A stretch of DNA of 61,756 nt from a virus (IMGVR_UViG_3300042888_000791:1-61756); one strand, 5' to 3'. Counted from the stretch's first letter, positions 2,119-58,811 are shown. Notes: generated by a model from the sequence alone, not told the origin. Made by a program: numbers and translations.

Positions 2119-3258
2119 ATGGCAGATTTTTCTTTAACCACGCTCTTTGTAGTGCCAGCAAGCCAAACAGCTTTATCTGGTAGTGCTACTCAAGACCTTG
2201 CTCCTGGAATCGTAGGAGTTTATGACAATAATTATAGAGCTGTACCAGCGGGTACAACTATTTATGACGCAAGTGTAGGACCTTATTTCTATGTTGCACA
2301 AGGTAGATCAAGTAACTATTTACAAGGATCTAAACGTTCAGACAAAATTGCAGGATGTTCTCAAGCAGTAGCTTGTCAACCAAATGTAATTGAATGGTAT
2401 AAAGTAGTTGGTTGTCCAACTCCTGTTAACCAAATTACAGTAGTAAATAATTTTAATGTTCGTTGTGGTGACACATTAACTTTAACTTTACGTGCTCACT
2501 CTTCTTACATTGATACATTGTATTTTAATGGATTCACACGTTCAGTAACTGTACAAGCACCTTGTTGTGATTGTGGTGGTGATCCTTGTGATACTGTTGA
2601 TGATAATGCATTAATTAATCAATTGATTGCTAAGTTAACAGCTACAGCACCTGGAATTAATCCAGATAACATTTCATTTAACAACTTCTTTACATTTAAA
2701 AATGTAGGTGGTACTGCTTTATGGATTGAAGGAAAACCTTTAACTAAATATGGTCAACCATGTGATGTTGCTGCTTTCCCTTTTGAATTTGATAGATTGT
2801 GGTTTAATACATTTGTATACTCAGGACCTGCAACTACAGCTGACTTTATTGTTGCTGATAATTGTAACATTGTAGCAACAGCTGCAACTACTCAAACATC
2901 AAATTATGCTAGAGGTTTAGCAACTGAAATTACTCAATTAGAGAAAAATTTCTATAGCTACCAAACAGGATTTATGAAACATCTTTATAGAATGGCTGGA
3001 TACAATCAAGTATTCGATACATTTGTAGATGGAAGTAAAACTTATACTACTTATTACATTAAATTTAATGAATATGGTAGAGGTATTTATAACTTCGGGG
3101 ATTATATCTCTATGGATTCTACTGTTATTATTGCTGTACCTACTACAAGTACTGCTTTTATAACTGATCTTGAAAATACATTAGTTCCTGCTTTAGGTGC
3201 TGTTGTAAGTGATGGTGGTGTTTGTATTACTACAACAACTACTACAACTACAGCATAA
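2119..3258 (+). CDS. Putative auxiliary capsid protein with C-terminal poly-Thr tail
   Basis: 379 aa, beta-rich, CCDCGGDPC motif, ends CITTTTTTTTA; followed by a strong terminator; synteny with crAss-like auxiliary capsid genes. Confidence 0.6.
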   Translation: MADFSLTTLFVVPASQTALSGSATQDLAPGIVGVYDNNYRAVPAGTTIYDASVGPYFYVAQGRSSNYLQGSKRSDKIAGCSQAVACQPNVIEWYKVVGCPTPVNQITVVNNFNVRCGDTLTLTLRAHSSYIDTLYFNGFTRSVTVQAPCCDCGGDPCDTVDDNALINQLIAKLTATAPGINPDNISFNNFFTFKNVGGTALWIEGKPLTKYGQPCDVAAFPFEFDRLWFNTFVYSGPATTADFIVADNCNIVATAATTQTSNYARGLATEITQLEKNFYSYQTGFMKHLYRMAGYNQVFDTFVDGSKTYTTYYIKFNEYGRGIYNFGDYISMDSTVIIAVPTTSTAFITDLENTLVPALGAVVSDGGVCITTTTTTTTA

Positions 3259-3282
3259 TCTGAACAAAACTTAATAACTAAT

Positions 3283-3320
3283 AAAAAGGGAAAGGAGTAA
3301 GAATTCCTTTCCCTTTTTTT
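3283..3320 (+). terminator. Rho-independent terminator
   Basis: AAAAAGGGAAAGGA-loop-TCCTTTCCCTTTTTTT perfect stem plus T-tract. Confidence 0.9.
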
Positions 3321-3335
3321 ATTAAAACTAATAAC

Positions 3336-3899
3336 ATGCCAACATTAAAATTAGATTTTTTAGTAGTTCCTACATATAATACATTAACTCTTGGTATTAT
3401 TGATGCATCTACATATACAACAAATCCACCATCTGTAAATACTCCATGGATAGAAATTACTCCTCCAGGTTTTGATACAATAGGACTTGTATTCAGTGTT
3501 GATGAATATAATATTTTTACATCATCAAATTTAGGGCTTTCACCAGTAGGTGTTAATCAACCTCTTCCTGATGGTATATATCATATAAAATATTCAGTTA
3601 CACCTGCATATGAAAATTTTGTAGAAAAATCTATTATACGTACAGATAGACTTCAAGAAAGATTTGATGAAGCTTTTATGCGTTTAGATATGATGGAATG
3701 TGATAGTGCAATTAAAACACAAAGTAAAGTTGAATTAGATACAATTTATTATTTTATACAAGGAGCTATCGCAGCTGCTAATAATTGTGCAATAATTCAA
3801 TCAAGTAAATTATATGATCAAGCAAGTAGAATGTTAAATCATTTTATGAAGCATGACTGTGGATGTACAGGTAATAACTATATAAATAATTTCAAATAA
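3336..3899 (+). CDS. Putative virion structural protein (Ig-like N-terminal part, helical C-terminal part)
   Basis: 187 aa; LPDGIY-x-I-x-Y motif and C-terminal CGC seen in crAss-like structural proteins. Confidence 0.5.
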   Translation: MPTLKLDFLVVPTYNTLTLGIIDASTYTTNPPSVNTPWIEITPPGFDTIGLVFSVDEYNIFTSSNLGLSPVGVNQPLPDGIYHIKYSVTPAYENFVEKSIIRTDRLQERFDEAFMRLDMMECDSAIKTQSKVELDTIYYFIQGAIAAANNCAIIQSSKLYDQASRMLNHFMKHDCGCTGNNYINNFK

Positions 3900-3900
3900 A

Positions 3901-4032
3901 ATGGCTAATTGTAGTAATTGTAATTCTAATGTTGGATGTTCATGCCAACTAGTAAATGGATTATGTGCAGCTTGTAGAGTTGCAGTTAACAAAGTACAAA
4001 ACTTTATAGAAACATGCTTACACCAAGATTAA
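3901..4032 (+). CDS. Small Cys-rich protein, 43 aa (absent from the ORF track)
   Basis: ATG one base after the upstream stop; MANCSNCNSNVGCSCQLVNGLCAACRVAVNKVQNFIETCLHQD; CxxC...CxC...CxxC; overlaps the next start. Confidence 0.7.
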   Translation: MANCSNCNSNVGCSCQLVNGLCAACRVAVNKVQNFIETCLHQD

Positions 4033-4280
4033 CAAATTGTCCTGAATGTGCAGATATTCCTACTATTATAGCAGAGATAGATTGCAAACTTTCTGAAATG
4101 AGTAATTCATTATATAACAATATAGTGTTTATGCTTAATAAATCATTTAATTCTGAAGTAATGTCTGACCTTTTAAAATATAAAAGGATATTAATGTTTA
4201 AAGTTTGTAACCCAAACTATGCAGGACATTTTACAGTGAATATGATTGCAAATAAAATCAAACTTTTAAAATTTAAATAA
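4014..4280 (+). CDS. Hypothetical protein (CxxC)
   Basis: 88-aa ORF coupled to its neighbours. Confidence 0.65.
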   Translation: MLTPRLTNCPECADIPTIIAEIDCKLSEMSNSLYNNIVFMLNKSFNSEVMSDLLKYKRILMFKVCNPNYAGHFTVNMIANKIKLLKFK

Positions 4281-5384
4281 ATGAGCTGTACTAATTGCTT
4301 TAATGGATGCACTGAAACTGTTTCAGATCAATGCATAAGATATACAGGAAACGATGTTCCTACACTTGGTATACAACATGGAGATACACTTCTTTCTGTT
4401 GAAAATTCTCTTACTACTTTTTTAGCTTCAACATTAACTGGAGCAGGTATAAAACCAGATATTCCAATTGAAAACTTCTGTACATTAGTTAAAAATTATC
4501 TTCCTACATGTACATCTTGTACAGGATTTACATTGAATGATGTATTAATTGCTGTTATACATGCAGCTTGTAATTTACAAGAACAAGTAGATGCAATTGA
4601 TGCTACACTTCTTGTATTAAATTCTGATTATACTTTACCAGTTGATTGTTTAACAGGTGTTACAAATTCTTCAGATACTCATGCTATTGTACAAGCTATT
4701 TTAACTAAACTATGTTCAGTTGATTCAGATTTAACATCATTAACTGCAGAACTTCATACATTATATTCAAGTAATGGTACTGAGTTAAATGCTCAGATTG
4801 CTGCTTATCTAGCTAGTATAGCACCTTCTTCATTGGTTAGTAATAAAATGATTCCTTATACTGCTATACCATTTTATCCTACACCTGCATTTTTAGCTGG
4901 TAAGTTTGATGGAACAGGTGCTGGTATTGGTGATTGGTTAAAAGTATACTTATGTAATGGACAAAATTTTACACCTGATTTAAGAGGTAATGTTCTTATT
5001 GGAGCAAACTCTATGGGCACAGGAGCATATAGTACTAGCAATACTGATACAAACCCTCCATATAGTAACCCTTATTATAATCAGGGTACATCTGCAGGAA
5101 CTAACACAGTTACATTAGGTTTAGGTCAAATACCTAGTCACAATCACGCTGGTTCTACTTCTACTGATACAGGGCATATTCATAATATATTTGCTAATGT
5201 AAATTATGGTACTGGAACCTCTGGTGTTAAATCAGGTACAGATTTCTTTATTCAAGGAGGAACGCATAGTTCTGATTCAAGCACTGCTAATATTAATTTA
5301 ACTATAGCTCAAGCAGGTGGTGGACAGGCACACTCTAATATACAACCTGTTTTAGGAGTTTTATATATAATGTATATACCTTAA
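4281..5384 (+). CDS. Tail/head fibre protein with C-terminal tail-collar-like domain
   Basis: LCNGQ..TPDLRG..LIG, VTL...QIPSHNH and GGGQAHSNIQP are tail-collar/short-fibre motifs; the Cys-rich N-terminal domain is shared with the next two ORFs. Confidence 0.7.
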   Translation: MSCTNCFNGCTETVSDQCIRYTGNDVPTLGIQHGDTLLSVENSLTTFLASTLTGAGIKPDIPIENFCTLVKNYLPTCTSCTGFTLNDVLIAVIHAACNLQEQVDAIDATLLVLNSDYTLPVDCLTGVTNSSDTHAIVQAILTKLCSVDSDLTSLTAELHTLYSSNGTELNAQIAAYLASIAPSSLVSNKMIPYTAIPFYPTPAFLAGKFDGTGAGIGDWLKVYLCNGQNFTPDLRGNVLIGANSMGTGAYSTSNTDTNPPYSNPYYNQGTSAGTNTVTLGLGQIPSHNHAGSTSTDTGHIHNIFANVNYGTGTSGVKSGTDFFIQGGTHSSDSSTANINLTIAQAGGGQAHSNIQPVLGVLYIMYIP

Positions 5385-5388
5385 TAAT

Positions 5389-7044
5389 ATGTGGCCATTT
5401 TTACCAAAGAAATGTGATTGTAGTGAAACACCTACAAATTTAAGTATACCTTGTGATCCAACATTACAATCATCTGATGAATTTGTATATGATGGGCCAG
5501 ATTTGCCTTGTATAAATGTGCACCATAATGATACATTAACAACAGCATTACAAGAACTAGATTATTATTTATGTGGTAGATTATTTACTCAACAAGTTAT
5601 GTTTAATATTGAAACAAATATTACAGCATTTCCTGATTTTGTTACACTGATAAATAATGTTGTTTCTTGTGATACTATTCTTTCTTGTTTAACATCAAGC
5701 ACAACTACTTCAACAACATCATCATCAACTAGTACAACTACTACTACAACTACTTGTCATCATCCTAATCTAGTAATAAATGGAGAATTTGATACATCTT
5801 TAGTGTCATGGAATCAAACTATCTCTAATAGTTGGATATGGAGTGCTAATCATGGTGGAAGTGCTTTTTATAATGGACTAGATGAAAATTCTTTATTATA
5901 TCAATCTATACTTACACCAGGAATAACTTATGATGTATCATTTCATTTATGGTGTGATAGTCCTTGTGCAGTTCCTGTAAAAGTATTTGTTGGTACAACA
6001 GAATATGATATTACAGGCATAACAGGTGATGTAGATATTAATCTTATAATTACTTGTACTGGTAATACTTTATTTGGTATACAAGCTTATGACGCTTGTG
6101 GAGAACCTAATAATAGTATTTATATTAATAATGTAGTTGTAAGTGAGCATTGTCCACAATTTACTACTACTACAACTACCATCTTACAACAAAAAAATTT
6201 TGATATAACAGGAAATTGGAATCTTACCACTCCTCCAGTAGTAGATGCATTATCATTTAAAACATTTTTAGAAAGTGGATATGATGGAGATGATACTCAA
6301 AATGGATTCTCTGATGTAGTTATTACAGATTTTTCATTAATAGAAGGTAGATTAACATGTAATTTATTTGCTTTAGAAAATAGTAGTAATTTTAATTTAG
6401 CTTATCTTGAAATTACAGATGTATCTTTATTTGGTGATATTATAGGATTATCTAACATATCTCTTTATACAAATAATATAAATAATGTTAATGATACTAC
6501 ATGGCCAAATAGTATGACACAATTAGATTTATCTAATAATCAAATAGTAAATTTTAATCCAACTTTTCAATTACCCAACTCATTAAGTTCTTTATACTTA
6601 AATGGCAATCAAATAGTAACATTTAACCCATCAGTACCATTACCTAGTTCATTAAGTAATTTATTATTAAGTAATAATTTAATAGTAAATTTTAATCCAT
6701 CCATCCCTTTACCATCATTAACACAAATAGTATTATCCTATAATAATATAAGTACATTTAATCCTAGTATTTCTTTGCCTCTTAGTTTACAGGGTCTTGC
6801 TTTAACTGGTAATGCTATAAGTATATTTAATCCAACTATTGCATTACCTAATTCATTAAATTATTTAGGTTTAGAACAAAATCTTATGACTACTGCAGGG
6901 TATACAGCATCAGAACCATGGGCAAATGCTATGACTAATATACCAGGAAGAGGTAATATAGTATTTACTAGTAATACAAATTCTGTAACAGGTACAAATT
7001 TAGCAACTATATTACATTCTAAAGGTTGGTCTACAACCGGATAA
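5389..7044 (+). CDS. Fibre/decoration protein: attachment domain, Ser/Thr linker, CBM-like jelly roll, leucine-rich repeats
   Basis: NLVINGEFD...W (CBM4/9-like start); about 6-7 LRRs of 23-24 aa (LxxLxLxxNxIxxFNPxxxLP); two Thr tracts. Confidence 0.7.
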   Translation: MWPFLPKKCDCSETPTNLSIPCDPTLQSSDEFVYDGPDLPCINVHHNDTLTTALQELDYYLCGRLFTQQVMFNIETNITAFPDFVTLINNVVSCDTILSCLTSSTTTSTTSSSTSTTTTTTTCHHPNLVINGEFDTSLVSWNQTISNSWIWSANHGGSAFYNGLDENSLLYQSILTPGITYDVSFHLWCDSPCAVPVKVFVGTTEYDITGITGDVDINLIITCTGNTLFGIQAYDACGEPNNSIYINNVVVSEHCPQFTTTTTTILQQKNFDITGNWNLTTPPVVDALSFKTFLESGYDGDDTQNGFSDVVITDFSLIEGRLTCNLFALENSSNFNLAYLEITDVSLFGDIIGLSNISLYTNNINNVNDTTWPNSMTQLDLSNNQIVNFNPTFQLPNSLSSLYLNGNQIVTFNPSVPLPSSLSNLLLSNNLIVNFNPSIPLPSLTQIVLSYNNISTFNPSISLPLSLQGLALTGNAISIFNPTIALPNSLNYLGLEQNLMTTAGYTASEPWANAMTNIPGRGNIVFTSNTNSVTGTNLATILHSKGWSTTG

Positions 7045-7085
7045 TACTAATGACAAAATATTAATAAATTTTTTAAAATAAAAAT

Positions 7086-7862
7086 ATGTGCACAAATAAT
7101 TCAAATTGTACTAACTCAGATAATACTTGTGGATGTGGTATTTCAACAGATCAAGTATCCTATCAAGGGCCTACACTACCATGTGTAGAAATAAATAATT
7201 GTGATACTATGACTACTGTATTACAACAACTTAATAGTTATATATGTAGCGATGAATTAGTTCATACAATTATAAATAATATTATTACTAATATTAGTTT
7301 ATACCAACAATTTACTACTTTAGTAAACCAAACAGTAGATTGCGAAACTGTTTTAGCATGTAATAGTACAACTACTACTACAACACTTGCTCCTTGTGAA
7401 AGTTTTTCATTAAATAATACAGGAGAAACTCCAGTGGCTATAATTATTACTGATTGTATTACACACTTACAAGAAGCTATTATATTAAATCCAGGAAATA
7501 CAAATATTTGTGTTGTAACAAATAGTCCTTTAGTTGTACCAGGTACAGTTATTGCAATACCAAATGGCCCTTGTGGTACCACTACAACTACTAGTACAAG
7601 TTCAACAACTACTACTACCACTACAGCTATTCCATGTGAATGTTTAACTGCTATTAATGAAGATAGTATATCTCATACAATATCTTATACAGATTGTTTT
7701 GGTGTTTTTCTTGAAAATGATATAGATATTCCTCCTTATGAAACTATAAAATTCTGTGGATGTTGCGCATATTCAGATAGTAGTTTTGTAACAATCTCTA
7801 TAGGAGAAAATTGTATAGATCAAATATGCCCAACTACAACAACAACTACTACATTAATATAA
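7086..7862 (+). CDS. Cys-rich decoration protein with three poly-Thr tracts
   Basis: 258 aa; shared N-terminal domain, two similar Cys-flanked small domains separated by Thr runs, ends CPTTTTTTTLI. Confidence 0.7.
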   Translation: MCTNNSNCTNSDNTCGCGISTDQVSYQGPTLPCVEINNCDTMTTVLQQLNSYICSDELVHTIINNIITNISLYQQFTTLVNQTVDCETVLACNSTTTTTTLAPCESFSLNNTGETPVAIIITDCITHLQEAIILNPGNTNICVVTNSPLVVPGTVIAIPNGPCGTTTTTSTSSTTTTTTTAIPCECLTAINEDSISHTISYTDCFGVFLENDIDIPPYETIKFCGCCAYSDSSFVTISIGENCIDQICPTTTTTTTLI

Positions 7863-7872
7863 AACTAAACCA

Positions 7873-8121
7873 ATGACAGTATTAATAACTCTTTCAACAG
7901 CAGGTTCAGACTCTGGGCCATTTAATCTTTATTCAGATCTTGATGGATACACATCAGCATTTGAAACAAATGTAGCTAAAGTGGATCTATTAGCAGGGTA
8001 TCCTTCTGCATTAGTACCAGACTATACAGGCATAATTAGAATTATGTCTGATAATTCTTTATGTACTAATTATGTGGATATAATAATATCTGGTACCACA
8101 ACTACAACAACAACAATATAA
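7873..8121 (+). CDS. Small beta-domain protein with poly-Thr tail
   Basis: 82 aa; ends SGTTTTTTTI; similar to the N-terminus of ORF 17485. Confidence 0.7.
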   Translation: MTVLITLSTAGSDSGPFNLYSDLDGYTSAFETNVAKVDLLAGYPSALVPDYTGIIRIMSDNSLCTNYVDIIISGTTTTTTTI

Positions 8122-8154
8122 ATAAATCTTGTTTTGTTGGTTTTACAAGATTTT

Positions 8155-8232: not shown

Positions 8233-8263
8233 TGTTTTATATAAAAACTATTAGCTATCTTTA
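8231..8263 (+). promoter_or_regulatory. Bacteroidota-type sigma promoter (-33 TTTG / -7 TAnnTTTG-like)
   Basis: TTTG-N21-TATCTTTA upstream of ORF 8290. Confidence 0.55.
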
Positions 8264-11687: not shown

Positions 11688-14600
11688 ATGGCAGACGATA
11701 AGATAAATAAAATCAAAACCATTATAGATGGTGACAAAAGCAATATCAATTTAAATGATAATGTTGCTTCTACAGGTATGAATTTGGATAATTCTATTAA
11801 TCAAATTGCTAAAGGACAACTTACTTATGCTTTAAATGCTTCTGTTGAAAATTTTGATTCAAATTCCGTTAGTTACCAAAATGAACAAGGTAATGAGTTT
11901 TGTTTACAATTTCCACAAAATTATGTTTTGGTTGGAAACCATCTTATATCTGAAAAAAATAAACATATTTTCTTTATAACTAATCCTGTAACAGGTGATT
12001 CAGAAATAGGATATATGGATAATAACGATTGTATATATAGAACATTAACAAATGCTTTATGTTTAAATTTTAATATACAATATCCAATTCATAAAATAGT
12101 TCATAAAATAACTAATTGTAAAACTGAAATATATTGGACAGATGGGTACAACCCAAGAAGATATATGGATATTGAAAATGTCCCATATAAACTTTCTGAT
12201 TCTTCTACATTATGTGATCCTTTATTTACTAATATATTAGATTGTAATCAAATAAAATTACAACCTAATTTTACTATACCTGAACTTAATATAGTTGATA
12301 CTATAACAGGGGGTAATATAACTGCTGGTACTATTCAGTTTGCTATACAATATAGTGATGCACAAAGTAATCCATACACATCTTACTATTCAATAACTAA
12401 CCCTACTCCTATTGCAGATACATTTTTAACTACAGTTAATTTTAATTATTCTGTTGGTAAATCTATAGTTGTTGAAATTAATAATTTAGATATTACAGGA
12501 CAATTTCAATATTTTAATTTAGCTGTAATAAAAACAGTTAATGATATTACATCAACGGAATTAGTTGGTACATATTTTATTGATAATAGCACACAACAAA
12601 TAACTTATACAGGACAAAATGTAGATAACATTCGTTTATCTATAGGTGATATATTTGAAAAATATCCTTATTACGAAATAGCTAATGATTTAACAGCTGT
12701 ACAGGACGTTCTTGTATGGGATGGACTTACTTCTATAGATAGAATTAATTATCAATCTATAGCCTCTCAAATCACTTTACAATGGGAAACATATAAACTT
12801 CCTTCTACAGAAAACTACTCTAATGAATTAAATGCTACAAATCTTAGAAGTTACCTTCGTGATGAAGTGTATGCTTTTGAGGTAGTATTTTTATTAGCTA
12901 ATGGAAAACAAACTGATGGTTTTCATATACCAGGAAGAGTTGCTACATTATCCGATTTAGTATTAGTTGATTCTGCTACCAATGATGATTTTATTGGAGA
13001 ACCTTCTATTGGTACAACTAGTCCTTATTGGAAAATATATAATACTGCCACTGTAATTGGTAATGCAGTTGGGTTACCTATTGGTAATGCTACACCACAT
13101 GAATATGGTGAATTTGCTTATTGGGAATCTACAGAAAAATATCCATGTAATGTAAATATATGGGGAGATCTTGCTGATAAACCTATAAGACATCATAAAT
13201 TTCCTGATGTTGCTGTTAGCCCTATTTATGAGTCAGCATTATTTATAGGAACTGGTTTAAATAATATGGTAATGCAAAATGATGCAGTTTACCCTATTGG
13301 TGTAAAAATTGATTCAAGTCAAATTGAAAGTTTAATAAGATTTTCTAATTTAACACCAACTCAACAAGATGATATAGTTGGTTATAAAATAGTAAGAGGA
13401 GATAGATCAACTAATAGATCTATTGTAGCTAAAGGTATATTACGTAATGTAGGTAAATATACAAGAGAAGAAGAAGATTTTATTTATCCTAACTATCCTT
13501 ATAATGATCTTGAACCAGATCCTTTTATTAATGTAAGTAATAATGCTTGGAATCAATTAGCTGAACCATATAATATTTATGTTGTACAATTTAATGCGCC
13601 ACTTACAGCAGTAGTTAAAACATATTTAGAAATTGAATTTACAGACCCTAATACAAATAAAAAAGCTAAACATAAATTTACTACATTAGGTAAACAACTG
13701 TGGTGTTCTATAACTAGACCTATTGTTTTAGGCCCTGGAATAGTTAATAATATTTTTCAAACTAATCATGGTCCTGAATTTTATCCTAATAATATTGCTG
13801 TAATAGAACATGCAAATTATGATGTATATACAATGCGTCATAAAAATGGTCATGCTGGATTTAGAGCAGAATGGAATGATGCAATTGTTGGTACAACTAC
13901 TATTTGGGTTCCGGGAGCTTATGGAGAGGGTTATACTGATTATACTATACATGTTGAACCAGGTACAGTTCCTCAAAATATTAGTACCAAATGGGATGAT
14001 ATTACACATGTTTCTGATATTAGAGTAGAATCTTGTGCAACTGAAACGCCTTTACCTAGTATTGCTACAGATACTAATTTACCATATAGACAAATATTTA
14101 ATTCGCCAGAAACTTCTTTTGGGCAACCTTTTTTAGGAAATGTACTTAAATTAGAACAAGTAATGTATGGAGCTGGTAAAGCCCATTTTACTGAAGTGAG
14201 AAATAATGCTAAATATAGATTATTAACTGCTGAAGCACAAAAAGATGCTTTTAATAGTTCATATCAAATTGCTGCTGTTACACCACCTTTTAATCCTGTA
14301 GCTTTATTTTCAGCTTATCAAGCATATCTTACTATTTATATTAATGGTATTACTAGAAAAAATTATGCATATTCATTTAACTCTAGAGCTAACTATGATT
14401 ATAGTGCTTCTATTCCTAATGGATTAGGTATTAAGCAAAGACCTATTGATACTACAAGGTATTTAATACCCGGAATACAAAATGTTGGTGATACTATTAA
14501 TAATAGAAATATTAATATTAATAATTATCAAAGAGAAACTTCTGTATATATAAAAACTAAAGGAACAGATGGTACAATAAGTGCTTTACCTTTTCCTAGT

Positions 14601-17480
14601 AATAGTGTTAATATGCCAGCAAATATAACAGATAAATCTAGATTTACTATAAGTAACAAGGATGCCTGTTCAGTTCCTGCTAAAGAGCAAGATATAAGTG
14701 TTGTTTCTTATTATGCATCTATGAAAAATATATTTATAAACCAATGGGGTCAAATATATTCTTATAAAACTATTGATACAGGATTTCAACAAATATTTAA
14801 TTCTTTAAGTACAAAAAACAATGTAGTATTTGGAGGAGATACATTTATTTCTAGATTTGCATTTAAAACTAAATTACCTTTTTTTATTGATAATAGAGTT
14901 AATGGATTAGATGATTCAGATATATTTTATGATGAGTTGGGTAATATAGCTTATCCAAAATATTGGCACTCAGCTAGATCTATTTTAGAAAATTATGATA
15001 TAATGACTAACATTATTTCATATAAAGCTCATAACTTTGATTGTAAAAATAGTCAAGAACCTAAAGAAAATAATCCTGATAGAACATTCTATGATGGATA
15101 TTTCTATTTGTTTGCATATGGTATTCCTAACTTTTACTGTGAAAGTTCTTACAATACAGATCTTAGACAAGCATTTAATAATAGAGAAGGTGATTTTTGG
15201 CCTCATGTTAGTAATGGTATTCCAGACGATTGGTTACAAGAAAGTTTTGTAAGTATTCAAAATGATAATACATATAATTATAATGTAACTTATTCTAAAC
15301 AAAATAAAGAAAACTATTTTAGCCATCTTCCTTTTGATTGGGATAGTACATGTTATACAGTATATCCTTTTAGAGCTATTTATTCAAATGCACAGCAAAC
15401 AGATGTTGATAACAAAATAAATAATTGGTTAACTTATGGCCCATTATCCTATTTTGATTTTCCACAAAACTATGGTAAATTAATATCATTAGATGGTATA
15501 CAAAACAAAGCTGTATTAGCTAGGTTTGAAAATAAATCACTAATGTATGATAATCTATTAACTATAGATACAAGTAACCCACAAGCTGCTTATATGGGTA
15601 ATCCATTAATGTTTAGAAAATCTCCACCAATAGATTTTGCTGAAACAGATCTTGGATATGTAGGTAGCCAAAATAAATTATTATTAAAAATACCTAATGG
15701 ACAATTAACTATAGATGCTAAAAGAGGACAAATATTTTTAATAGAAGGAACACAAGCTACAGATCTTTCTGCATTTGGCAGTGGTATGAATAGATTTTTT
15801 ACAGACCATTTAGCTTTTGAGATTTTAAGATATTTTCCTACAGTGGATACTGATAACCATTTTAATGGTATTGGCTTACACGCTGTGTATGATAGTAAAT
15901 TTGATAGAATTATAATTACTAAATTAGATTATATACCTTTAGATAAAAATATAAAGTATTATACTACTACTAAAGAATTTTATTTAGAAGAAGAACAATC
16001 TAATGGTGTTATAATTAAAACACAAGTTTATCTATCAGATAAAGAATTTTTCTGTAATAAATCTTGGACAGTATCATTTAATATTAATACAAAAAGTTGG
16101 GTATCATTTCATAGTTACCTTCCTAATTTTTATATAGCAGAAAATAATTTCTTTTATTCCGGGCTTAATGGTTGTTGTACAGATATTGAAGGAAGTTTTG
16201 AAGCTATAGTTGGTGATACTAATAAACCTATTATGACAACTACAACTACAACCTTACTACCTGTAACTACTACTACTTCTACAACAATATTTATTGATTG
16301 TGAATTAAGTGGTAGAATATCAGCAACATATTGTAATATTGAAGGTAATGCTATTATAACAATTCCTCCACCACCTACTACAACTTTGTGTCAAAGGTCT
16401 GATAGTTTACCATCATTTTATTTAGTAACAGGGTATAATGTATATCCTGATCCAGCTATAGTATCTACAGGAAGTTATGAGGATGCTTGTAATGCAATGG
16501 CATTTTTATTACTTAATACATCTGATAATATAATTGTTGAATCTGATGGTGTAATGGCTACTTCTTTAAATGCAGGTAGTGTTATATATAAAATTAATGG
16601 TTCATTAGATTGTACATTACAAGATGATGGTTGGTATTTTACAGATGAAAGTTCTTCTACTAATACAGTATATCATATTGAAAGTGGTGTAATAACTGAA
16701 CTATTTAGTTGTAATTGTGATACTACAACAACTACAACTACTGCTATTCCTAATGTTTCTGAATGTTGTGGAACATTATTTGCATCAGGTGATAATATAT
16801 ATTATTATAATTCTATTGATATAACTATGAATTTATTAAATGTTCCTGGATATGTAGAATCTATAGGTATAGCAATGACAGCTAATTATTTATGGAGTTT
16901 AGATACTACTGGTATAAAACAATGGGATATAACATTAGCACCGTTTAGTGCTACTTATAATAGATTAATTACAATTCCTTTAAGTTTGTCTGTTAATAGT
17001 GGTATAGTTGCTAAAGATGAAAATACACTAATTACAGTAGACAATACAAATTCTCCTATAGAAGATATAGTTGAATTAAATATTACAGGTGTAACAGCAG
17101 TGGTAACAACTATGTTTAGTTTATTATATAATAGAACTACATTTAGAAATATGTTATATACAACAGATGGTAAATTAATTACAATTAATCAAGACATTAT
17201 CACTTTAGTTCATTATATAACACAATATGATTATAGTACTGGTGTAATGGAATATGATTCAAATATTGGAACATTCTCTCCAACATCAATATTTGAATGT
17301 GAATGTAGTTTATTTTTAACAGATGCAGCAGGAAAAATATATATATTTGATAGAACGGAACTAAGTACTATACTTGAAATAAATACACTTGGTGTTCCTG
17401 TATCTTATGCAACTCAAGTGGGAAGTTGCATTGTTAGCTCTTTAATTAATTCAACAACAACCACAACAACAACTCTTTAA
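11688..17480 (+). CDS. Tail stabilisation (muzzle) protein with C-terminal Thr-rich accessory domains
   Basis: 1930 aa; GMNLD, IYWTDG.NP.R, VFGGDTFISRF, WTVSF...WVSFHSYLP are crAss-like muzzle motifs; the last ~420 aa contain several poly-Thr tracts and a beta-repeat domain. Confidence 0.75.
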   Translation: MADDKINKIKTIIDGDKSNINLNDNVASTGMNLDNSINQIAKGQLTYALNASVENFDSNSVSYQNEQGNEFCLQFPQNYVLVGNHLISEKNKHIFFITNPVTGDSEIGYMDNNDCIYRTLTNALCLNFNIQYPIHKIVHKITNCKTEIYWTDGYNPRRYMDIENVPYKLSDSSTLCDPLFTNILDCNQIKLQPNFTIPELNIVDTITGGNITAGTIQFAIQYSDAQSNPYTSYYSITNPTPIADTFLTTVNFNYSVGKSIVVEINNLDITGQFQYFNLAVIKTVNDITSTELVGTYFIDNSTQQITYTGQNVDNIRLSIGDIFEKYPYYEIANDLTAVQDVLVWDGLTSIDRINYQSIASQITLQWETYKLPSTENYSNELNATNLRSYLRDEVYAFEVVFLLANGKQTDGFHIPGRVATLSDLVLVDSATNDDFIGEPSIGTTSPYWKIYNTATVIGNAVGLPIGNATPHEYGEFAYWESTEKYPCNVNIWGDLADKPIRHHKFPDVAVSPIYESALFIGTGLNNMVMQNDAVYPIGVKIDSSQIESLIRFSNLTPTQQDDIVGYKIVRGDRSTNRSIVAKGILRNVGKYTREEEDFIYPNYPYNDLEPDPFINVSNNAWNQLAEPYNIYVVQFNAPLTAVVKTYLEIEFTDPNTNKKAKHKFTTLGKQLWCSITRPIVLGPGIVNNIFQTNHGPEFYPNNIAVIEHANYDVYTMRHKNGHAGFRAEWNDAIVGTTTIWVPGAYGEGYTDYTIHVEPGTVPQNISTKWDDITHVSDIRVESCATETPLPSIATDTNLPYRQIFNSPETSFGQPFLGNVLKLEQVMYGAGKAHFTEVRNNAKYRLLTAEAQKDAFNSSYQIAAVTPPFNPVALFSAYQAYLTIYINGITRKNYAYSFNSRANYDYSASIPNGLGIKQRPIDTTRYLIPGIQNVGDTINNRNININNYQRETSVYIKTKGTDGTISALPFPSNSVNMPANITDKSRFTISNKDACSVPAKEQDISVVSYYASMKNIFINQWGQIYSYKTIDTGFQQIFNSLSTKNNVVFGGDTFISRFAFKTKLPFFIDNRVNGLDDSDIFYDELGNIAYPKYWHSARSILENYDIMTNIISYKAHNFDCKNSQEPKENNPDRTFYDGYFYLFAYGIPNFYCESSYNTDLRQAFNNREGDFWPHVSNGIPDDWLQESFVSIQNDNTYNYNVTYSKQNKENYFSHLPFDWDSTCYTVYPFRAIYSNAQQTDVDNKINNWLTYGPLSYFDFPQNYGKLISLDGIQNKAVLARFENKSLMYDNLLTIDTSNPQAAYMGNPLMFRKSPPIDFAETDLGYVGSQNKLLLKIPNGQLTIDAKRGQIFLIEGTQATDLSAFGSGMNRFFTDHLAFEILRYFPTVDTDNHFNGIGLHAVYDSKFDRIIITKLDYIPLDKNIKYYTTTKEFYLEEEQSNGVIIKTQVYLSDKEFFCNKSWTVSFNINTKSWVSFHSYLPNFYIAENNFFYSGLNGCCTDIEGSFEAIVGDTNKPIMTTTTTTLLPVTTTTSTTIFIDCELSGRISATYCNIEGNAIITIPPPPTTTLCQRSDSLPSFYLVTGYNVYPDPAIVSTGSYEDACNAMAFLLLNTSDNIIVESDGVMATSLNAGSVIYKINGSLDCTLQDDGWYFTDESSSTNTVYHIESGVITELFSCNCDTTTTTTTAIPNVSECCGTLFASGDNIYYYNSIDITMNLLNVPGYVESIGIAMTANYLWSLDTTGIKQWDITLAPFSATYNRLITIPLSLSVNSGIVAKDENTLITVDNTNSPIEDIVELNITGVTAVVTTMFSLLYNRTTFRNMLYTTDGKLITINQDIITLVHYITQYDYSTGVMEYDSNIGTFSPTSIFECECSLFLTDAAGKIYIFDRTELSTILEINTLGVPVSYATQVGSCIVSSLINSTTTTTTTL

Positions 17481-20622: not shown

Positions 20623-23600
20623 ATGAAAGCAAAAATGTTAAAAATAGCAGGAGTTAAAAGTGAGGCTGCCTTCTATAAAAAATTTCCAAGTCAAGAAGCA
20701 TTTATGAAAGTGCATGGTAAAGAGTTTAAAAAAGCTCAAACAGCCAATGCTATTGATAAAGCTCAACAAGGTTTTACACAAGGATTTGGCATGAATCCAC
20801 AATCTCAATATCAAAATACTTTTGCTTCTAGTAATAATTTTGTTCCGGGAAATTATAATCCAATTGACCCTACTATAAATACTAATAGTGGTTTTCAGAA
20901 TACAGATCCATTTGCTATGCAAAATATGGGTAATCAATGGGCAAAACAAAATCCATTACCACAACAAGGAACTGGTCAAATTTCTAATACTGTATTTGGT
21001 GAAAACAAAGCAGTAACAGGTGGATTGGGGGGAAAAGATTTTAAAGGTATGGGAGATGCTAGTGGAGCTATGTCTTATATGGGTTCAGCAATGGATATTG
21101 GAAAAGGAATTAGTATGATTAAAGGACAAAGAGAAGCTAAAAGACAAGCTAAACAAAATTCTTTAGTTACAGGTGTACAAGCTGATGCTGCTGAAAGTAG
21201 AGATGTAGATATTTCTAGACAACAGCATGATTATGCAACTAGACAAAGAAATGCTATGATGAGGCCTATTACAGGAGAAGAGTTATTTCCTGTTACAGGT
21301 GTAGGTACAAATGTACTTGCTCAAAATGGTTCTCAAGTGAGTGGTAATAATACAGAAATTCAAAATACATTTGATCCTTATGATATATATGATGATGGTG
21401 GTTATGAACCATTAAATGATTCAGAACAAAATAAAACTTATCAATCTGGTGGAGATATTGGGCAGTTTGAGCCTATGCTTACTTCCGCTAGTAATAAATA
21501 TATTAATCAGGGAGGAGAACCTGATGCAGGTTCTATGATTGGTGGAGGTATAGGTGGTGCAGCAGGTATGGCTATTGGTGGCCCTATGGGTGAAAAAATT
21601 GGTAAACTTGCAGGAAGTGCTATAGGTGGTCTTATTGATACAACTGATAGAGATATAAAAAAATTTAGTAATCAATCCACAACTAATATTAATAGAGTCA
21701 GTAATCAAGCTTTTGGTAAAGGTATTCATAGTCAAAATGCATCTTATATGGAAGATGGTGGTTATATACCCTTAGCTGAAGAGGGAAATGAAATTCAATA
21801 TGATACTAAACATAGTATTGTGGATTTACTAGCATCTAAAGATGAAGCTAATGATTATACTTCTAGAAAAAAACTTGCTACATCTTTAGGTATTAAAAAT
21901 TATAGAGGATCTGCAGAACAAAATATTCAATTAATGAATATGGTTAATCATCCTAATAAAAAACTCACAGCAACTGCTAAAAGTCCTGCAAAAGAAAAAA
22001 CAGTTACACCTATCTCAAAAGATAAAAGTGTAATTCGTGTTATACCACCAGCAAAAGGTAAACAAGAATACCCTAATAAATTTTTTAATGATGACATTAA
22101 TAGATCACAGTTTAAAGATAAACCTTATAAAAGTCTTAAACAAAATCCAGTTAATCTTATAGATAATAAATTCTTTAATGCTGATATTAATAGAAAAGAA
22201 TTTAAAACTAATCCATATGAAGACCCTAGACATTTACAATCTGGAATGATAACTGACAAAGGAACTAATATGTCCCATGTTATTGAAAATGGAAAAATAG
22301 TTAAATCATTTCCTGTACTTACTGGACAAAGTAGAGATTGGAATCAAAACAATTATCCAATGAAATATCTTGATAAGCACCCTGAAAAAAGATCTACACC
22401 AACAGGTACATATATGATGGGACCAAATCCTAATATATATAGTGAACCAGGATTTAATTTAAATCCCATAAATGCATTTGGGCATCCAGCTGCAAAAGCT
22501 GAGAATACAGCTGTACACATTACGTATCCTCCGGAGTATGCTAAAAGAAATCCTTTATATTCTCAAACAGCAGATAAAAGAAATGCATCTTTTGGTTGTA
22601 CAAATTGTAGAAAACCAGATTTAAAAGATATTGTTGAAAGATATCCTAAAGGGGATACAGCTATATACATAGATAGTAGAAAAAAATATGATGATAGTTT
22701 TATTAAAAAATTTCAAAAACAAGATGGGGGGTATGTAAGCAATGATTGGACTCCACAAGTAATAGCTAAGTTTGGTGACCATACTGCAGAAGATTATTAT
22801 GACTATGCTCATGAGTATGATACATTAAGAGCTGGAGGAAGTGTTAAAGGAGATTATGAACCAATAAGTGAAAGAGGTATGGAAACTGCTGCTTTAGGTG
22901 GTAGTGTAAAAACATTGTGGGGTGGAGAAGTAAAATCTATTTCTCATAATCCTTATATGCCTAATTCAGGAGAAACAGTTAACTTTTATGGTCAATCTCA
23001 TGATGATGGTGGTATAGGTGTTAAATATGGTGAAGGTGGAGAATCACAACAAGGTGAACAAGCTAGTGTTGAAGTGGAAAGAGGGGAACCTTCTTTTGAA
23101 ATGACAGATCCTAATACAGGTAAACCTACATTAAATGTTTTAGGTGATAGAAAAGTACATGCTAGCTTTGCTAAGCAATTAGGAGATCCTGATTTAATTA
23201 AAATTGCTGAGCAATACGATGGTAAGAAATTTAAAAATATTGGCTTAGAATTATCTAAAAAAGAAAATAAGTATACTTCAATGATAGATAAAGCTACACA
23301 AGAATTAAATGATTTTAAACCAAAAACACAAGTTGATAAATTTAAATTAAATGCTTTAGAAAAAACCATTGAAGCTGCTCATCAAAATCTTAAACAAATT
23401 GCGGGTACTAAAATGACTCTTACACATTTTCAAAATGCTATTAATGATACAGCTGATGAGTTGTCAGAAAATTTAGGTAAAGATATTAGCTCTGGTAATC
23501 TTAATAAAGGAAAAGTTATGTTTGGAAAAGACAAAGGACAAATTGCTAAATATGGTGCTTCAATTGGTAAAGCACAAGGAGGGGATAAATTAAAAGGTAA

Positions 23601-49822: not shown

Positions 49823-50284
49823 ATGGATAAATCAACATTAGATAGAATAAACTTACTACATCCTTCTGTGAGAGAAGAAATGAAAGTTATAGTTAATGAA
49901 TGTAATAAAGCATTAACTGGGAAATCTCAAGTTAGAATAGCACAAGGATTAAGAACATTTGCTGAACAAGATGCTTTATATGCTAAAAGACCAAAAGTAA
50001 CTAATGCTAAAGGAGGTCAATCTGTACATAATTATGGATTCGCTATAGATATTGTTTTAATCATAAATGGAAAGGAAGCTTCTTGGGATACTCATAAAGA
50101 TTGGGATAATGATGGGATAGCAGATTGGGATGAATGCGTAAAAGTATTTGCTAAACACGGATGGAGCTGGGGAGGAAATTGGGCGAGTTTTAAAGATATG
50201 CCTCATTTTGATAAAATAGGTTTTAACAATTGGAGAATATTACAAACCAAACCTAGAGATAAAGCTGGGTATATAATTATATAA
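49823..50284 (+). CDS. Endolysin, M15-family L-Ala-D-Glu peptidase (CwlK/Ply500-like)
   Basis: RT.AEQD.LY, S.HNYG.AID, WGGNW and D.PHF motifs. Confidence 0.9.
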   Translation: MDKSTLDRINLLHPSVREEMKVIVNECNKALTGKSQVRIAQGLRTFAEQDALYAKRPKVTNAKGGQSVHNYGFAIDIVLIINGKEASWDTHKDWDNDGIADWDECVKVFAKHGWSWGGNWASFKDMPHFDKIGFNNWRILQTKPRDKAGYIII

Positions 50285-53041: not shown

Positions 53042-53062
53042 TATAATTAAAATAAAAACATT

Positions 53063-53620
53063 ATGGCAATACCCTCAAAACAAATCGGATGGAGCAATGA
53101 ATCAAACCTATTATGGCAAGTTGCTAAAGAAATAGAATATTTAACTAGAGCAACTACTAATGTAACGGTAACAAATACTATTGCAAATCCTGTACCTGTT
53201 TCTGGTCCTCTAACAGATACACAATTAAGAGCCACCCCTGTACCAATATCTCCAAGACCAAATACTACTGGTTCTAATGGAACTACACCTTATAAATTAA
53301 CATCTTTAGCTAGTACTAATGCTAATGTAGTTAAAGCTAGTGGAGGTAACTTATATTCTATTGTAGCTATCGGACTTACATCTACTGTGAGATATTTAAA
53401 ATTCTATAATAAAGCATCTGCTCCTACTGTTGGAACTGATATACCTGTTATGACTATTCCAGTTCCAGCTAACTTACAAGGTGCTGGTATTGCTATTCCG
53501 TTTTCTATGGGAGTTAATTTTTCTTTAGGAATTGCTATTGCTATAACAAGTGGTGTTGCTGATACAGACACTGGTGTTATTGGTGCTGGAGATGTAGTTA
53601 TAAACTTAACCTATGCTTAA
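53063..53620 (+). CDS. Putative virion decoration/fibre protein
   Basis: MAIPSKQIGWS N-terminal module plus a jelly-roll-like C-terminal domain (YLKFYNKASAPTVGTD.P). Confidence 0.6.
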   Translation: MAIPSKQIGWSNESNLLWQVAKEIEYLTRATTNVTVTNTIANPVPVSGPLTDTQLRATPVPISPRPNTTGSNGTTPYKLTSLASTNANVVKASGGNLYSIVAIGLTSTVRYLKFYNKASAPTVGTDIPVMTIPVPANLQGAGIAIPFSMGVNFSLGIAIAITSGVADTDTGVIGAGDVVINLTYA

Positions 53621-53622
53621 TT

Positions 53623-53778
53623 ATGTTAACATTATTAAATTGTGGTCAAGGACAACAAAATACAATTAGTGTATTTGCTTTAATTGAAGCTTTTAAAATA
53701 AGAGTATTTGGACTTACTGGTACATATTCAGCAGAGGCTTGTCAAACAGCCACATTGAACGCTTTAAACAATATATAA
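53623..53778 (+). CDS. Small protein, 51 aa (absent from the ORF track)
   Basis: MLTLLNCGQGQQNTISVFALIEAFKIRVFGLTGTYSAEACQTATLNALNNI; exactly fills the gap and is coupled to the ATG at 53779. Confidence 0.65.
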   Translation: MLTLLNCGQGQQNTISVFALIEAFKIRVFGLTGTYSAEACQTATLNALNNI

Positions 53779-55605: not shown

Positions 55606-55609
55606 TAAA

Positions 55610-56860: not shown

Positions 56861-56861
56861 A

Positions 56862-57149
56862 ATGATTTACAAACTTAAATACGCAGACAAAAAAACTGCA
56901 ATATCTGATTTACTAGACAAAGGAGTTTATGTAATGCAAACAATTGATGAAGAAGAAGTCCTATCTTTCGGAGAGGGTATTCACGCAATTGTAGAACTTG
57001 GTAAAATTGTTATTAACCAACCTACCGAAGAAATTAAGCCTATATTTGCAGAGGGGTATCATTACGATGTTATGTCTGAACAAGAAATTGATTTTAAAGA
57101 GAATGAAATAATAGTTAACAACCCAAAGCACGGATTTTTAGGGCATTAA
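56862..57149 (+). CDS. Hypothetical protein (possible fibre chaperone)
   Basis: 95 aa, acidic, follows the fibre genes. Confidence 0.55.
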   Translation: MIYKLKYADKKTAISDLLDKGVYVMQTIDEEEVLSFGEGIHAIVELGKIVINQPTEEIKPIFAEGYHYDVMSEQEIDFKENEIIVNNPKHGFLGH

Positions 57150-57179
57150 ATAAAAACAAAATTAAAACCAAACTACATT

Positions 57180-58196
57180 ATGAAAGAATTAAAGTTTATC
57201 CAAGCTTGCCCAAGCGACATTTATTATACATGGCAAGTAAATCTTTGGATGGAAAGTCTTAAAGAAATAGGACATTCAGACAAAGCAATTAATTTAATTT
57301 TTACTCCTAAAGGTAGAGAAAATAGAGATAAATGGAAACAAGTAGAAAACTTATATCCAGAAGCTGAATTTTACTTTTATGAAGATGAAGACCAATTAAG
57401 TAAATTAATAGGAATATATATTCCTGTGCTTAGACCATATGTTCTTTGGAAACATTTTAAATTACACCCAGAATTAAGTGAAAAAGCTATTTTCTACTGT
57501 GATTCTGACATTTTGTTTATGAAAGATTTTAATGTAGATCAATTCTTAAATGATGATATTAATTATTTATCAAACACAAATAGTTATATTAATGCTAAGT
57601 ATTTTGATAGTAAAATTAATCAAGTGTTACCAGAAAAACTAGAAGAATATAAAACTAGAGACATTCTTGCAGAAATAGCAAGTGTTATAGGTATAAGTAG
57701 AGAAGTTTGTGAGACTAATAATGATCATTCAGGAGGAGCACAATATTTATTAAAAAATGTAGATGGTGCTTTTTGGAGTAAAGTGATGAATGATTGTATT
57801 CTTATAAGAACTTATTTACTAAAAATAAACAGAGAGTTTTTTAAAGATGAAAATTCAGGATTTCAAAGTTGGTGTGCTGATATGTGGGCTGTTTTATGGA
57901 ATATTTGGTTAAGAGATCAAGAAACAAAAGTGGTTCCTGAATTAAATTTTGCTTGGGCCACAGATCCAATAATAAAATTAGATACACATACCATCTTTCA
58001 TAATGCAGGAATAGTTTCTGAAACAGGAAATGGTTATCCAGCTTTTTATAAAGGCAAATATCATATGGGAACAGATCCTACAAAAGATTCTTACTTAGAT
58101 GTTATTCTTAATAATGAAATATCACAAAAGTTTTGTACGTGGTTTTATGCCACTAAATTAAATGAAATTAAAAATAAATATAAATTAAATTATTAA
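57180..58196 (+). CDS. GT-A fold glycosyltransferase resembling peptidyl-Ser/Hyp O-glycosyltransferases
   Basis: YY.WQ, Y.P..RP, YCDSDILF (DxD at 57501-57509), GGAQY, W.ADMWA and IFHNAG motifs. Confidence 0.7.
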   Translation: MKELKFIQACPSDIYYTWQVNLWMESLKEIGHSDKAINLIFTPKGRENRDKWKQVENLYPEAEFYFYEDEDQLSKLIGIYIPVLRPYVLWKHFKLHPELSEKAIFYCDSDILFMKDFNVDQFLNDDINYLSNTNSYINAKYFDSKINQVLPEKLEEYKTRDILAEIASVIGISREVCETNNDHSGGAQYLLKNVDGAFWSKVMNDCILIRTYLLKINREFFKDENSGFQSWCADMWAVLWNIWLRDQETKVVPELNFAWATDPIIKLDTHTIFHNAGIVSETGNGYPAFYKGKYHMGTDPTKDSYLDVILNNEISQKFCTWFYATKLNEIKNKYKLNY

Positions 58197-58214
58197 TAAA
58201 TAAATATAAATATT

Positions 58215-58625
58215 ATGACACCAAACAAACGTGACTTAAAAGCGTATTCTCGCTTTGATGGAACTGGAAGAATAGTTCCAGGAAGTACTGTACTTAGACG
58301 TAACAAACCTAGAGTAGGTAAATGGATTGAAATGCAAACATATGAATGTTGTAATGATGTTACATTGTTATATACTGTTTCTTCCCCAACAATTACTGAT
58401 GTATCAGTAAGACTTTTCTGTAATGGTACAGAAATAAATTACTTATATACAGCTAGTGATTCAACTACTATTGCATCATTGATTAATATATTAAATAATA
58501 CATTTAATGTATTAGGAGTATTTACAAATCCTAGTGGTAACATTATTCAATTAGTAATGTCTGGAGCACAAAAAGCAGCATTATGTCCTGTAGGTACATT
58601 AACTTTTACTGTTATAGCTGATTAA
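58215..58625 (+). CDS. Putative structural protein with N-terminal LKA..RFDG.GRIV.GS domain
   Basis: 136 aa; the N-terminal ~45 aa are paralogous to the next mini-ORF. Confidence 0.65.
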   Translation: MTPNKRDLKAYSRFDGTGRIVPGSTVLRRNKPRVGKWIEMQTYECCNDVTLLYTVSSPTITDVSVRLFCNGTEINYLYTASDSTTIASLINILNNTFNVLGVFTNPSGNIIQLVMSGAQKAALCPVGTLTFTVIAD

Positions 58626-58634
58626 AACAAATAT

Positions 58635-58811
58635 ATGTCAAATACAACAACTTTAAAAGCTTTTGTTAGATTTGATGGGTCTGGACGTATAGTTGCAGGA
58701 AGCTTAATTCTTAGAAAGAATAAGCCAAAAATAGGTAGGTGGAAAGAGATTACAACATATGAGTGTTGTAATCCTACCACTACCACCACCACTACAGAAC
58801 ATTTATTGTAA
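58635..58811 (+). CDS. 58-aa mini-protein with poly-Thr tail (absent from the ORF track)
   Basis: MSNTTTLKAFVRFDGSGRIVAGSLILRKNKPKIGRWKEITTYECCNPTTTTTTTEHLL; clear paralogue of the ORF 58215 N-terminus. Confidence 0.85.
   Translation: MSNTTTLKAFVRFDGSGRIVAGSLILRKNKPKIGRWKEITTYECCNPTTTTTTTEHLL

Follow-up and report, generated by a model that had tools for sequence, protein, structure and literature searches.

Dense O-glycosylation of low-complexity Ser/Thr tracts by soluble or lumenal glycosyltransferases gives the serine-rich-repeat adhesins of Gram-positive bacteria and the mucins of eukaryotes an extended glycan brush, initiated by GtfA/B (GT-B fold) in the former and by the ppGalNAc-transferases (GT27) in the latter. 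In PBCV-1, a virus-encoded cytoplasmic glycosyltransferase (GT) of GT-A fold, A64R, acts on the virus's own major capsid protein; to our knowledge this system has no poly-Thr tag. Among phages, glycosylation of the virion by phage enzymes has, as far as we know, been shown experimentally for some mycobacteriophages only, and Freeman et al. (2023, Cell Host Microbe) reportedly described it for Che8 and others. In these phages, according to PMC12619734, which cites that work, phage-encoded GTs decorate capsid and tail-tube subunits at their C-termini. A further candidate system lies in IMGVR_UViG_3300042888_000791:1-61756, a virus record of IMG/VR whose entire length of 61,756 bp was analysed and is called the window from here on: six of its virion-module proteins carry runs of threonine, and an open reading frame (ORF) at 57180-58196 encodes an enzyme of the phrog_4417 family with a predicted GT-A fold. 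We consider it probable that this enzyme glycosylates the poly-Thr tags, which would give the virion a glycan brush. The adhesins and mucins are secreted cellular proteins, whereas the tags here are very short, spanning 6-20 residues, and belong to virion proteins assembled in the cytoplasm.

The likeness to the Che8 system lies in the position of the acceptor, at the C-termini of major virion proteins, and in the same proposed logic. An analogous position is seen in five of the six window proteins and in the capsid and tail-tube tails of the phages phiFL1A, 1706 and R3.3, discussed below. Enzyme and acceptor differ: the phrog_4417 profile has no match at E ≤ 0.01 in the whole 59,472-bp Che8 genome (5/5 in the positive control), and the Che8 capsid and tail-tube proteins, whose C-termini read ...NKTGS and ...YSDGS, lack poly-Thr. 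In other hosts and other phage lineages, what seems to be the same job is thus done by another enzyme on another acceptor. The PBCV-1 system, whose enzyme has the GT-A fold in common with the protein studied here, differs in belonging to a eukaryotic virus and in its GT family and type of acceptor. A literature search that covered part of PMC found no report linking poly-Thr tails with a phage GT and none of glycosylation in Crassvirales; the string 'glycos' occurs 0 times in the main text of the phicrAss001 atlas (PMC10172136).

Threonine tags in the window

Runs of at least six threonines (T≥6) occur 11 times in the window, in 6 of its 42 ORFs, where 1000 within-protein shuffles give a mean of 0.029 and a maximum of 1. 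Threonine is the sole amino acid that forms a homopolymer of six or more, and no such run is found in the other 36 ORFs, which include every recognisable enzyme and four giant consecutive ORFs of 1389, 875, 4642 and 2369 aa. The tags are non-random and, in the window, confined to virion-module proteins. In the five C-terminally tagged proteins the run ends 1-4 residues ahead of the stop; of the 11 runs, 8 have a Cys no more than 6 residues away, and Cys makes up 2.4% of the poly-Thr proteins vs 0.5% of the others. The codons of the runs are mixed (ACT 36, ACA 34 and ACC 10, with ACG absent), and the share of ACC among Thr codons is about five-fold higher in runs of 5 or more Thr (12.5%, 10/80) than elsewhere (2.4%, 37/1568). 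Such mixing fits selection at the level of the protein, and may itself have been selected against slippage. The pattern (ACN)6 matches 20 times, always on the coding strand. An earlier note on this DNA had located the Thr and Ser/Thr tracts, described them as often C-terminal, often beside Cys and written in mixed ACT/ACA/ACC codons, and held the large cargo proteins and the enzymes to be free of T≥6 runs; every tract translates as it stated, and the counts given here agree with the rest.

All six tagged proteins are encoded on the + strand, as are all plausible genes of the window. The product of ORF 2119-3258 (379 aa) ends in Cys-Ile-T8-Ala, its T8 (3229-3252) one residue from the stop. A 551-aa leucine-rich-repeat protein (5389-7044; Pfam LRR_8, E 8.8e-10) contains a 21-residue Ser/Thr tract (5692-5754) and a T6 (6163-6180), both flanked by Cys; it is probably a fibre or receptor-binding protein, and the gene 5' of it (4281-5384) matches tail and tail-fibre PHROGs. 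Two proteins read from translation, with zero matches in Pfam or PHROG, come next: a Cys-rich one of 258 aa and 20% Thr (7086-7862), with T6 at 7368-7385, T5 at 7578-7592 and T7 at 7605-7625 and 7833-7853, the last of these two residues from the stop, and one of 82 aa that ends in T7-Ile (7873-8121; T7 at 8095-8115). The muzzle-like virion protein of 1930 aa (11688-17480) has Thr runs in its last quarter (16236-16286 and 16722-16742) and at its C-terminus (17454-17474). The sixth is a mini-protein of 58 aa, again read from translation, that ends in ...YECCNP-T7-EHLL (58635-58811; T7 at 58776-58796) and is kept beside the GT gene in relatives.

The window, with a GC content of ~29% and an estimated completeness of 53%, is about half of the genome of a marine, low-GC, crAss-like phage, in which PHROG and Pfam scans recognise a virion and tail module and an endolysin. 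The phage is accepted as crAss-like because of the structural match of its capsid protein to phicrAss001 and the match of its muzzle protein. In Foldseek, the low-confidence model of ORF 2119-3258 comes closest to the icosahedral capsid chain of phicrAss001 (7qof_a, E 1e-6, TMq 0.44); two more entries of the same phage, 7qoi and 7qoh, rank next, and the first unrelated match comes at E 2e-3. This ORF has zero PHROG or Pfam family matches and zero tblastn matches among isolated phages, and a profile of its 16 homologues retrieved nothing relevant from PDB sequences. On its predicted structure it is accepted here as a capsid-shell protein of either the major or the auxiliary type; both types make up the shell in the phicrAss001 atlas (Nature 2023; PMC10172136). 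ORF 11688-17480 matches the 'virion structural protein' family phrog_37948 (E 4.6e-113), and tblastn aligns its residues 879-1425 with the csAssE-Sib 'Muzzle protein' (28.9% identity, E 6e-51) as well as with Cellulophaga phage phi4:1 gp042, annotated as a virion structural protein from tandem mass spectrometry (MS/MS) proteomics, and a protein of Leptolyngbya phage Lbo-JY46. The ORFs of 4642 and 2369 aa lie downstream of it.

A GT-A fold in the phrog_4417 family

The 338-aa product of ORF 57180-58196, on the + strand, matches phrog_4417, a family labelled 'unknown function' (E 1.2e-52), and zero Pfam families at E ≤ 0.01. The family, well conserved and mostly viral, amounts to 2666 clusters at E ≤ 0.001 in a database clustered at 90% identity, none of the 120 listed having a name or a Pfam domain, and to 766 representatives at 50% clustering. 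The ESM Atlas returns just viral 'hypothetical protein' clusters, one of them 10% HPAT and one DUF7164. Among 75 aligned members (29-87% identical to ORF 57180), Pfam gives weak signals for HPAT in two (E 0.012) and for Glyco_transf_34 in one (E 0.0075).

The AlphaFold model of ORF 57180 has a predicted local distance difference test score (pLDDT) of 96.7 and a predicted template-modelling score (pTM) of 0.93. Foldseek finds 231 PDB matches to it at E ≤ 0.001, with glycogenins first (E ~1e-6, TMq 0.43-0.46), and VIA-align 108 chains with Z ≥ 8, of which ranks 1-19 are all GTs; from rank 20, nucleotidyltransferases sharing the fold also appear. The VIA-align matches include LgtC (1g9r; Z 14.0, root-mean-square deviation (rmsd) 3.7 Å over 239 residues), glycogenin (1zcu/3u2t; Z 14.0/13.9), the Skp1 alpha-galactosyltransferase (Z 13.8), the catalytic domain of UGGT (Z 13.7), GlyE of S. 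pneumoniae (5gvv; Z 12.5) and the capsid-glycosylating A64R of PBCV-1 (2p6w; Z 10.7). The superpositions on LgtC, glycogenin and GlyE have rmsd values of 3.6-4.0 Å over 221-239 residues, at 8-12% identity in the structural alignments. Several of the top matches (glycogenin, Skp1 alpha-GalT, UGGT and GlyE) glycosylate proteins; the substrates of glycogenin are protein side chains, and those of GlyE the glycans of a serine-rich-repeat protein, which it extends.

Residues D108, D110, H274 and K291 are among those invariant in the 75-sequence alignment. The D108-S-D110 motif (FYCDSDILF) sits at the end of model strand E103-107, and a DxD is present in 75/75 members. Together with the later His and Lys it recalls the metal triad of the GT8 enzymes, represented here by LgtC, glycogenin and GlyE, which may map onto these residues. 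Ten long family members were scanned for fusion partners: GT6 occurs in two, GT2 with a DXD sugar-binding domain in one, GT2 with methyltransferase domains in one and methyltransferase domains only in two, while four have no recognised partner; the fusions to GT and methyltransferase domains are the pattern of a glycan-building enzyme. The maximum hydropathy over 19 residues is 0.91, and no membrane segment is expected. ORF 57180 is thus confirmed as a GT-A glycosyltransferase by its predicted fold and conserved motif, with its catalysis predicted; by sequence, its family is uncurated. The soluble GT-A enzyme that the earlier note had proposed is upheld by the fold, the DxD and the absence of a hydrophobic segment, and finds no support in Pfam.

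Conservation within the crAss-like lineage

A scan of IMG/VR with ORF 2119-3258 yielded 408 relatives, of which 80, 64-81% identical, were kept. In 80/80 of these capsid homologues the globular part ends in a Cys, followed by a Ser/Thr-rich tail of ~7 to 30 residues whose length and sequence vary even among close relatives. Kept in kind and not in sequence, the tail points to a compositional feature under selection. The GT was searched for in the records of 33 of the 80 loci, those on the longest contigs, and is present in four, including both genomes rated 100% complete, at 50-54 kb downstream of the capsid gene. These four are the sole records that were found by hand to extend at least 50 kb beyond that gene, and absence from the fragments is uninformative, since the five largest GT-free ones, also checked by hand, end before this distance is reached. 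No lineage member without the GT or without the Ser/Thr tail was found among those examined, so there is no variance within the lineage.

Small poly-Thr genes flank the GT in 4/4 unbiased GT loci. Homologues of the 58-aa mini-protein stand directly 3' of the GT in five loci (L085, L086, L087, L088 and L207), with 2-3 T7 units vs one in the window. Complete relatives encode, on the opposite strand and 4-6 kb away from phrog_4417, a GT2-family enzyme (G001:C1:56516-56794, G002:C1:89407-89700), and the record G148 has two GT2 genes and one GT1 gene near phrog_4417 (G148:C1:86695-87736, 100010-100348). The window itself has no GT2 gene, and the position that corresponds to the one in relatives falls beyond base 61756. 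With such neighbours in relatives, the enzyme that the earlier note had called dedicated is probably not the only GT involved.

The enzyme and the tags in unrelated phages

Homologues of ORF 57180 are found by tblastn in 77 of 50,697 isolated-phage records, all at less than 60% identity. Their hosts are Lactobacillus (23), Enterococcus (21), Staphylococcus (11), Lactococcus (8), Clostridium (3), Lacticaseibacillus (2) and, with one record each, Chryseobacterium, Levilactobacillus and Arcanobacterium; 6 records carry no host name. Eight lineages from this set were taken for inspection of the GT neighbourhood. In Enterococcus phage phiFL1A the GT is directly 3' of the major tail protein gp50, whose C-terminus reads ...NGT5-S-T6-SS-T7-QASSK, and the capsid-like gp45 ends in T5-KP-T5-KP-T7-QG. 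The GT of Lactococcus phage 1706, orf14, is directly 3' of the 'major structural protein' orf13, which ends in T10-HHD, while the capsid/protease orf10 ends in T9-HHD. In Staphylococcus phage PMBT8 it follows directly on the 'major tail protein' (C-terminus T16-QSHIL), and in Lacticaseibacillus phage R3.3 on the gene for a protein ending in T6-KAP-T5-SSHA, the tail protein of this phage ending in T6-SHA. Enterococcus phage VPE25 has the GT amid head and connector genes, and its tail protein ends in T3-D-T10-AGK. The closest isolate, Chryseobacterium phage MA9V-3 (GT 35% identical to ORF 57180), carries the GT after two poly-Thr genes that hold six T6 runs. In the Levilactobacillus myophage ENFP1 (Herelleviridae) the tract is not near the GT; a T10 linker lies ~80 kb off, in a 318-aa protein between fibre-like genes.

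Three further observations concern the tags of these phages. In VPE25 (L004), a 52-aa frame at 5728-5883, T7-VKP-T5-S-T7-VKP-T8, is nearly all Thr; it is read in a different frame from the major capsid gene (4553-5755) and shares the final 28 bases of that gene, which suggests either a programmed frameshift that gives some capsid subunits a poly-Thr tail or an error of sequencing or annotation. The 'putative holin' orf3 of 1706 (L335, 964-1368) has a T7 five residues from its C-terminus; either the tag reaches beyond classical structural proteins or the annotation is wrong. Thr runs also occur near the C-termini of head-maturation protease/scaffold-like proteins in PMBT8 (L336, 3424-4560; T5, T8 and T8) and VPE25 (L004, 3385-4563; T6), which is odd if just the surface parts of the mature virion are decorated.

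Contrasts with phages that lack the enzyme

Across unrelated phages, the co-occurrence of enzyme and tags is near-perfect. The tail-tube protein of phiFL1A has homologues in many phages, and five of these phages were compared: Streptococcus phages Javan47, Javan505 and Javan311 and Lactobacillus phages phiJL-1 and ATCC8014, the last two of the same genus as R3.3, with tail-tube proteins 50-60% identical to that of phiFL1A. A profile search of the whole records found the GT in 0/5 of these phages, as against 5/5 known carriers in the positive control, and none of their tail-tube proteins has poly-Thr at its C-terminus. The capsid proteins of the three Javan phages, the only capsid sequences compared, stop right after ...PEGVVEATI, where phiFL1A adds its tags. 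Likewise, Lbo-JY46, phi4:1 and csAssE-Sib, which have the muzzle protein in common with the window, carry the GT in 0/3 cases and show 0 matches of (ACN)6 on either strand of records of 125-151 kb each. The tail-tube homologues of VPE25 offer no clean contrast, its nearest GT-free relatives, Paenibacillus phages, being 39% identical.

Every one of the 12 GT-bearing records has (ACN)6 matches: 16 in G148, 5 each in ENFP1 and phiFL1A, 2 in R3.3, 11 in 1706, 21 in PMBT8, 15 each in MA9V-3 and VPE25, 33 in G001, 17 each in G002 and G003 and 28 in G009. This amounts to 185 matches in 1.02 Mb (181 per Mb), vs a single match in 0.62 Mb (1.6 per Mb) in the GT-free records, of which 1/8 is positive (12/12 vs 1/8 records, Fisher p = 1e-4); the reversed pattern, as a control, gives 0-2 matches per record. 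The sole GT-free match, in Javan311 (W03) at 8247-8263, might encode poly-Asn or poly-Gln rather than poly-Thr. As a baseline, 80 IMG/VR loci (682 kb) were picked by the unrelated pattern (GAN)8 and T≥6 runs were scored in ORFs of at least 60 aa. Two of the 80 have such a run, one of them in G148, the sole GT-bearing record of the set, and overall 7/8 GT-bearing loci carry a T≥6 run vs 1/79 GT-free controls (p = 1e-8). The earlier note had proposed co-occurrence of the enzyme and the tracts across crAss-like genomes as a check on its reading, and the outcome is strongly positive: within the lineage, across unrelated lineages and in three GT-free contrasts.

Proposed mechanism and its alternatives

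Under the proposed mechanism, the tags, most of which lie at the very end of the chain or separate Cys-rich modules in the six virion-module proteins, would be modified while these proteins are still in the host cytoplasm. ORF 57180, predicted to be soluble and cytoplasmic, would use its putative DxD...His metal site to transfer the first sugar from a nucleotide sugar to the hydroxyls of the tag threonines; its likeness to retaining GT8 enzymes suggests an alpha linkage. The neighbouring GT2 enzyme might extend this sugar in relatives, and here the GT2 gene would lie just beyond the end of the window. Capsid, muzzle and fibres would thereby acquire a mucin-like brush of glycans. The crAss-like phage with a mucin-like O-glycan coat that the earlier note had envisaged is thus supported in its identity, by the capsid and muzzle matches, and in the link between enzyme and tags, with the glycan itself a prediction.

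The threonine runs could also do without any sugar, as stiff or flexible linkers and C-terminal 'hairs', if the GT were unrelated to them and acted, for example, on host envelope polymers, as the prophage enzyme TarP does on wall teichoic acid. TarP is among the Foldseek matches of ORF 57180 (E 3.6e-5), several runs lie between Cys-rich modules, and in ENFP1 the GT is distant from the poly-Thr gene. We nevertheless regard such linkers as an unlikely explanation, which leaves unexplained the absence of runs from the homologous capsid, tail-tube or muzzle proteins of relatives without the GT, the position of the GT directly 3' of poly-Thr-tailed genes in at least three unrelated siphophage groups, and the presence of phrog_4417 among the tail genes of lytic crAss-like phages. 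Another arrangement would have a host enzyme or another phage enzyme modify the tags, phrog_4417 merely extending the glycan or binding the tags, and the GT2 and GT1 genes found near it in relatives, like the fusion of family members to other GT domains, could be read in this way. Against this stands the fact that phrog_4417 is the one component present alongside the tags in every lineage examined. In the small genomes of phiFL1A, R3.3 and 1706 it lies amid the tag-protein genes and directly 3' of one of them (phrog_4417 being the GT family scanned for there). Moreover, virions assemble in the cytoplasm whereas O-glycosylation in Bacteroidota hosts is periplasmic, which would put the virion proteins out of its reach. 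We hold a mere extending or binding role to be quite improbable. It is very improbable, finally, that the enzyme glycosylates phage DNA with hypermodified bases and that its link to poly-Thr is a coincidence of lineage. Phage GTs do often act on DNA (PMC12619734), but a ThyA-type hydroxymethylase is found in 0/5 complete GT-bearing genomes by a search that is positive in 10/14 controls, which argues against a DNA target; the gene sits in virion modules, and the co-occurrence spans unrelated lineages.

Several results weigh against the glycosylation of the tags by phrog_4417, which we still prefer. That the threonines are acceptors and carry sugar we infer from genes and predicted structures, and the same holds for which sugar it is, how it is linked and what role the coat plays (shielding, stability or adhesion). 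PF01501, the GT8 model, has no match at E ≤ 1 among the 75 family members, and no other Pfam GT model matches any of them meaningfully; the sole match of ORF 57180 among PDB sequences is irrelevant (E 0.21). The AlphaFold model of the capsid protein, built with 16 homologues, is of low confidence (pLDDT 60.5). The GT-bearing records are not phylogenetically independent and amount to ~8 lineages with three clean contrasts, all three in the predicted direction. ENFP1 breaks the pattern of adjacency, with no tract within 20 kb of the GT and no recognisable structural module around it. When records were selected by pattern first, the association was weak, the GT being present in 5/65 (ACN)8-selected vs 1/68 (GAN)8-selected records (p = 0.09; 65 and 68 of the 80 loci per set were searched). 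Most poly-Thr viral contigs show no copy of phrog_4417; many of them are short fragments, some of the matches are not real genes, and other enzymes, or none, may be used there. Among the contigs of the (ACN)8 scan that lack this GT, several (L094, L161, L135 and others) carry much longer Thr tracts, reaching 60 residues, or have more than one small ORF that ends in T12-T17; a different enzyme may act there, or the GT gene may be missing from the sequenced piece.

A possible portable tag and its implications

Beyond the window, we lean, with less assurance than for the glycosylation of its own tags, towards a widespread two-part module of tailed phages: a portable poly-Thr 'glyco-tag', placed at the C-termini or in the linkers of capsid, tail-tube, muzzle and fibre proteins, and a dedicated, initiating phrog_4417 GT-A enzyme, with the density of a mucin-like O-glycan brush tuned by the length of the tag. 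It would have spread among marine crAss-like phages, phages of Bacteroidota, and sipho- and myophages of Firmicutes. Compared with the mycobacteriophages, the enzyme family is another one and the acceptor very simple (T6-T16), and the two occur together in phages whose hosts are of marine Bacteroidota type or belong to Enterococcus, Staphylococcus, Lactococcus and the lactobacilli. If the proposal is true, sugar coats on phage particles are far commoner than thought, sequence alone could suffice to predict which virions are glycosylated, and the particles of many abundant marine phages, and of Gram-positive phages relevant to therapy, consist of glycoprotein. Such coats could alter recognition by antibodies, adherence to mucus, and the stability of phages in therapy or food fermentation, and attempts to identify the tagged capsid and tail proteins by mass spectrometry would suffer systematic interference. 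For Crassvirales-like phages, the coat would be a surface chemistry unmentioned in the phicrAss001 atlas. A short tag that can be genetically encoded, paired with one soluble enzyme, would also be attractive as a tool for glycoengineering of proteins in the cytoplasm.

Other features of the window

The 1389-aa protein (20623-24792) resembles an L-alanyl-D-glutamate peptidase over residues 392-458 (phrog_2307, E 5.5e-13), which suggests a virion-borne cell-wall hydrolase; the endolysin gene (49823-50284) is apart from it. Just 3' of the GT and its mini-protein, at 58836-59255, lies a gene for a DUF5856 protein that matches phrog_858, labelled 'starvation-inducible transcriptional regulator'. 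Further on, a tail-fibre-like protein with collagen triple-helix repeats (Pfam Collagen, E 5.3e-9) is encoded at 60374-61333.

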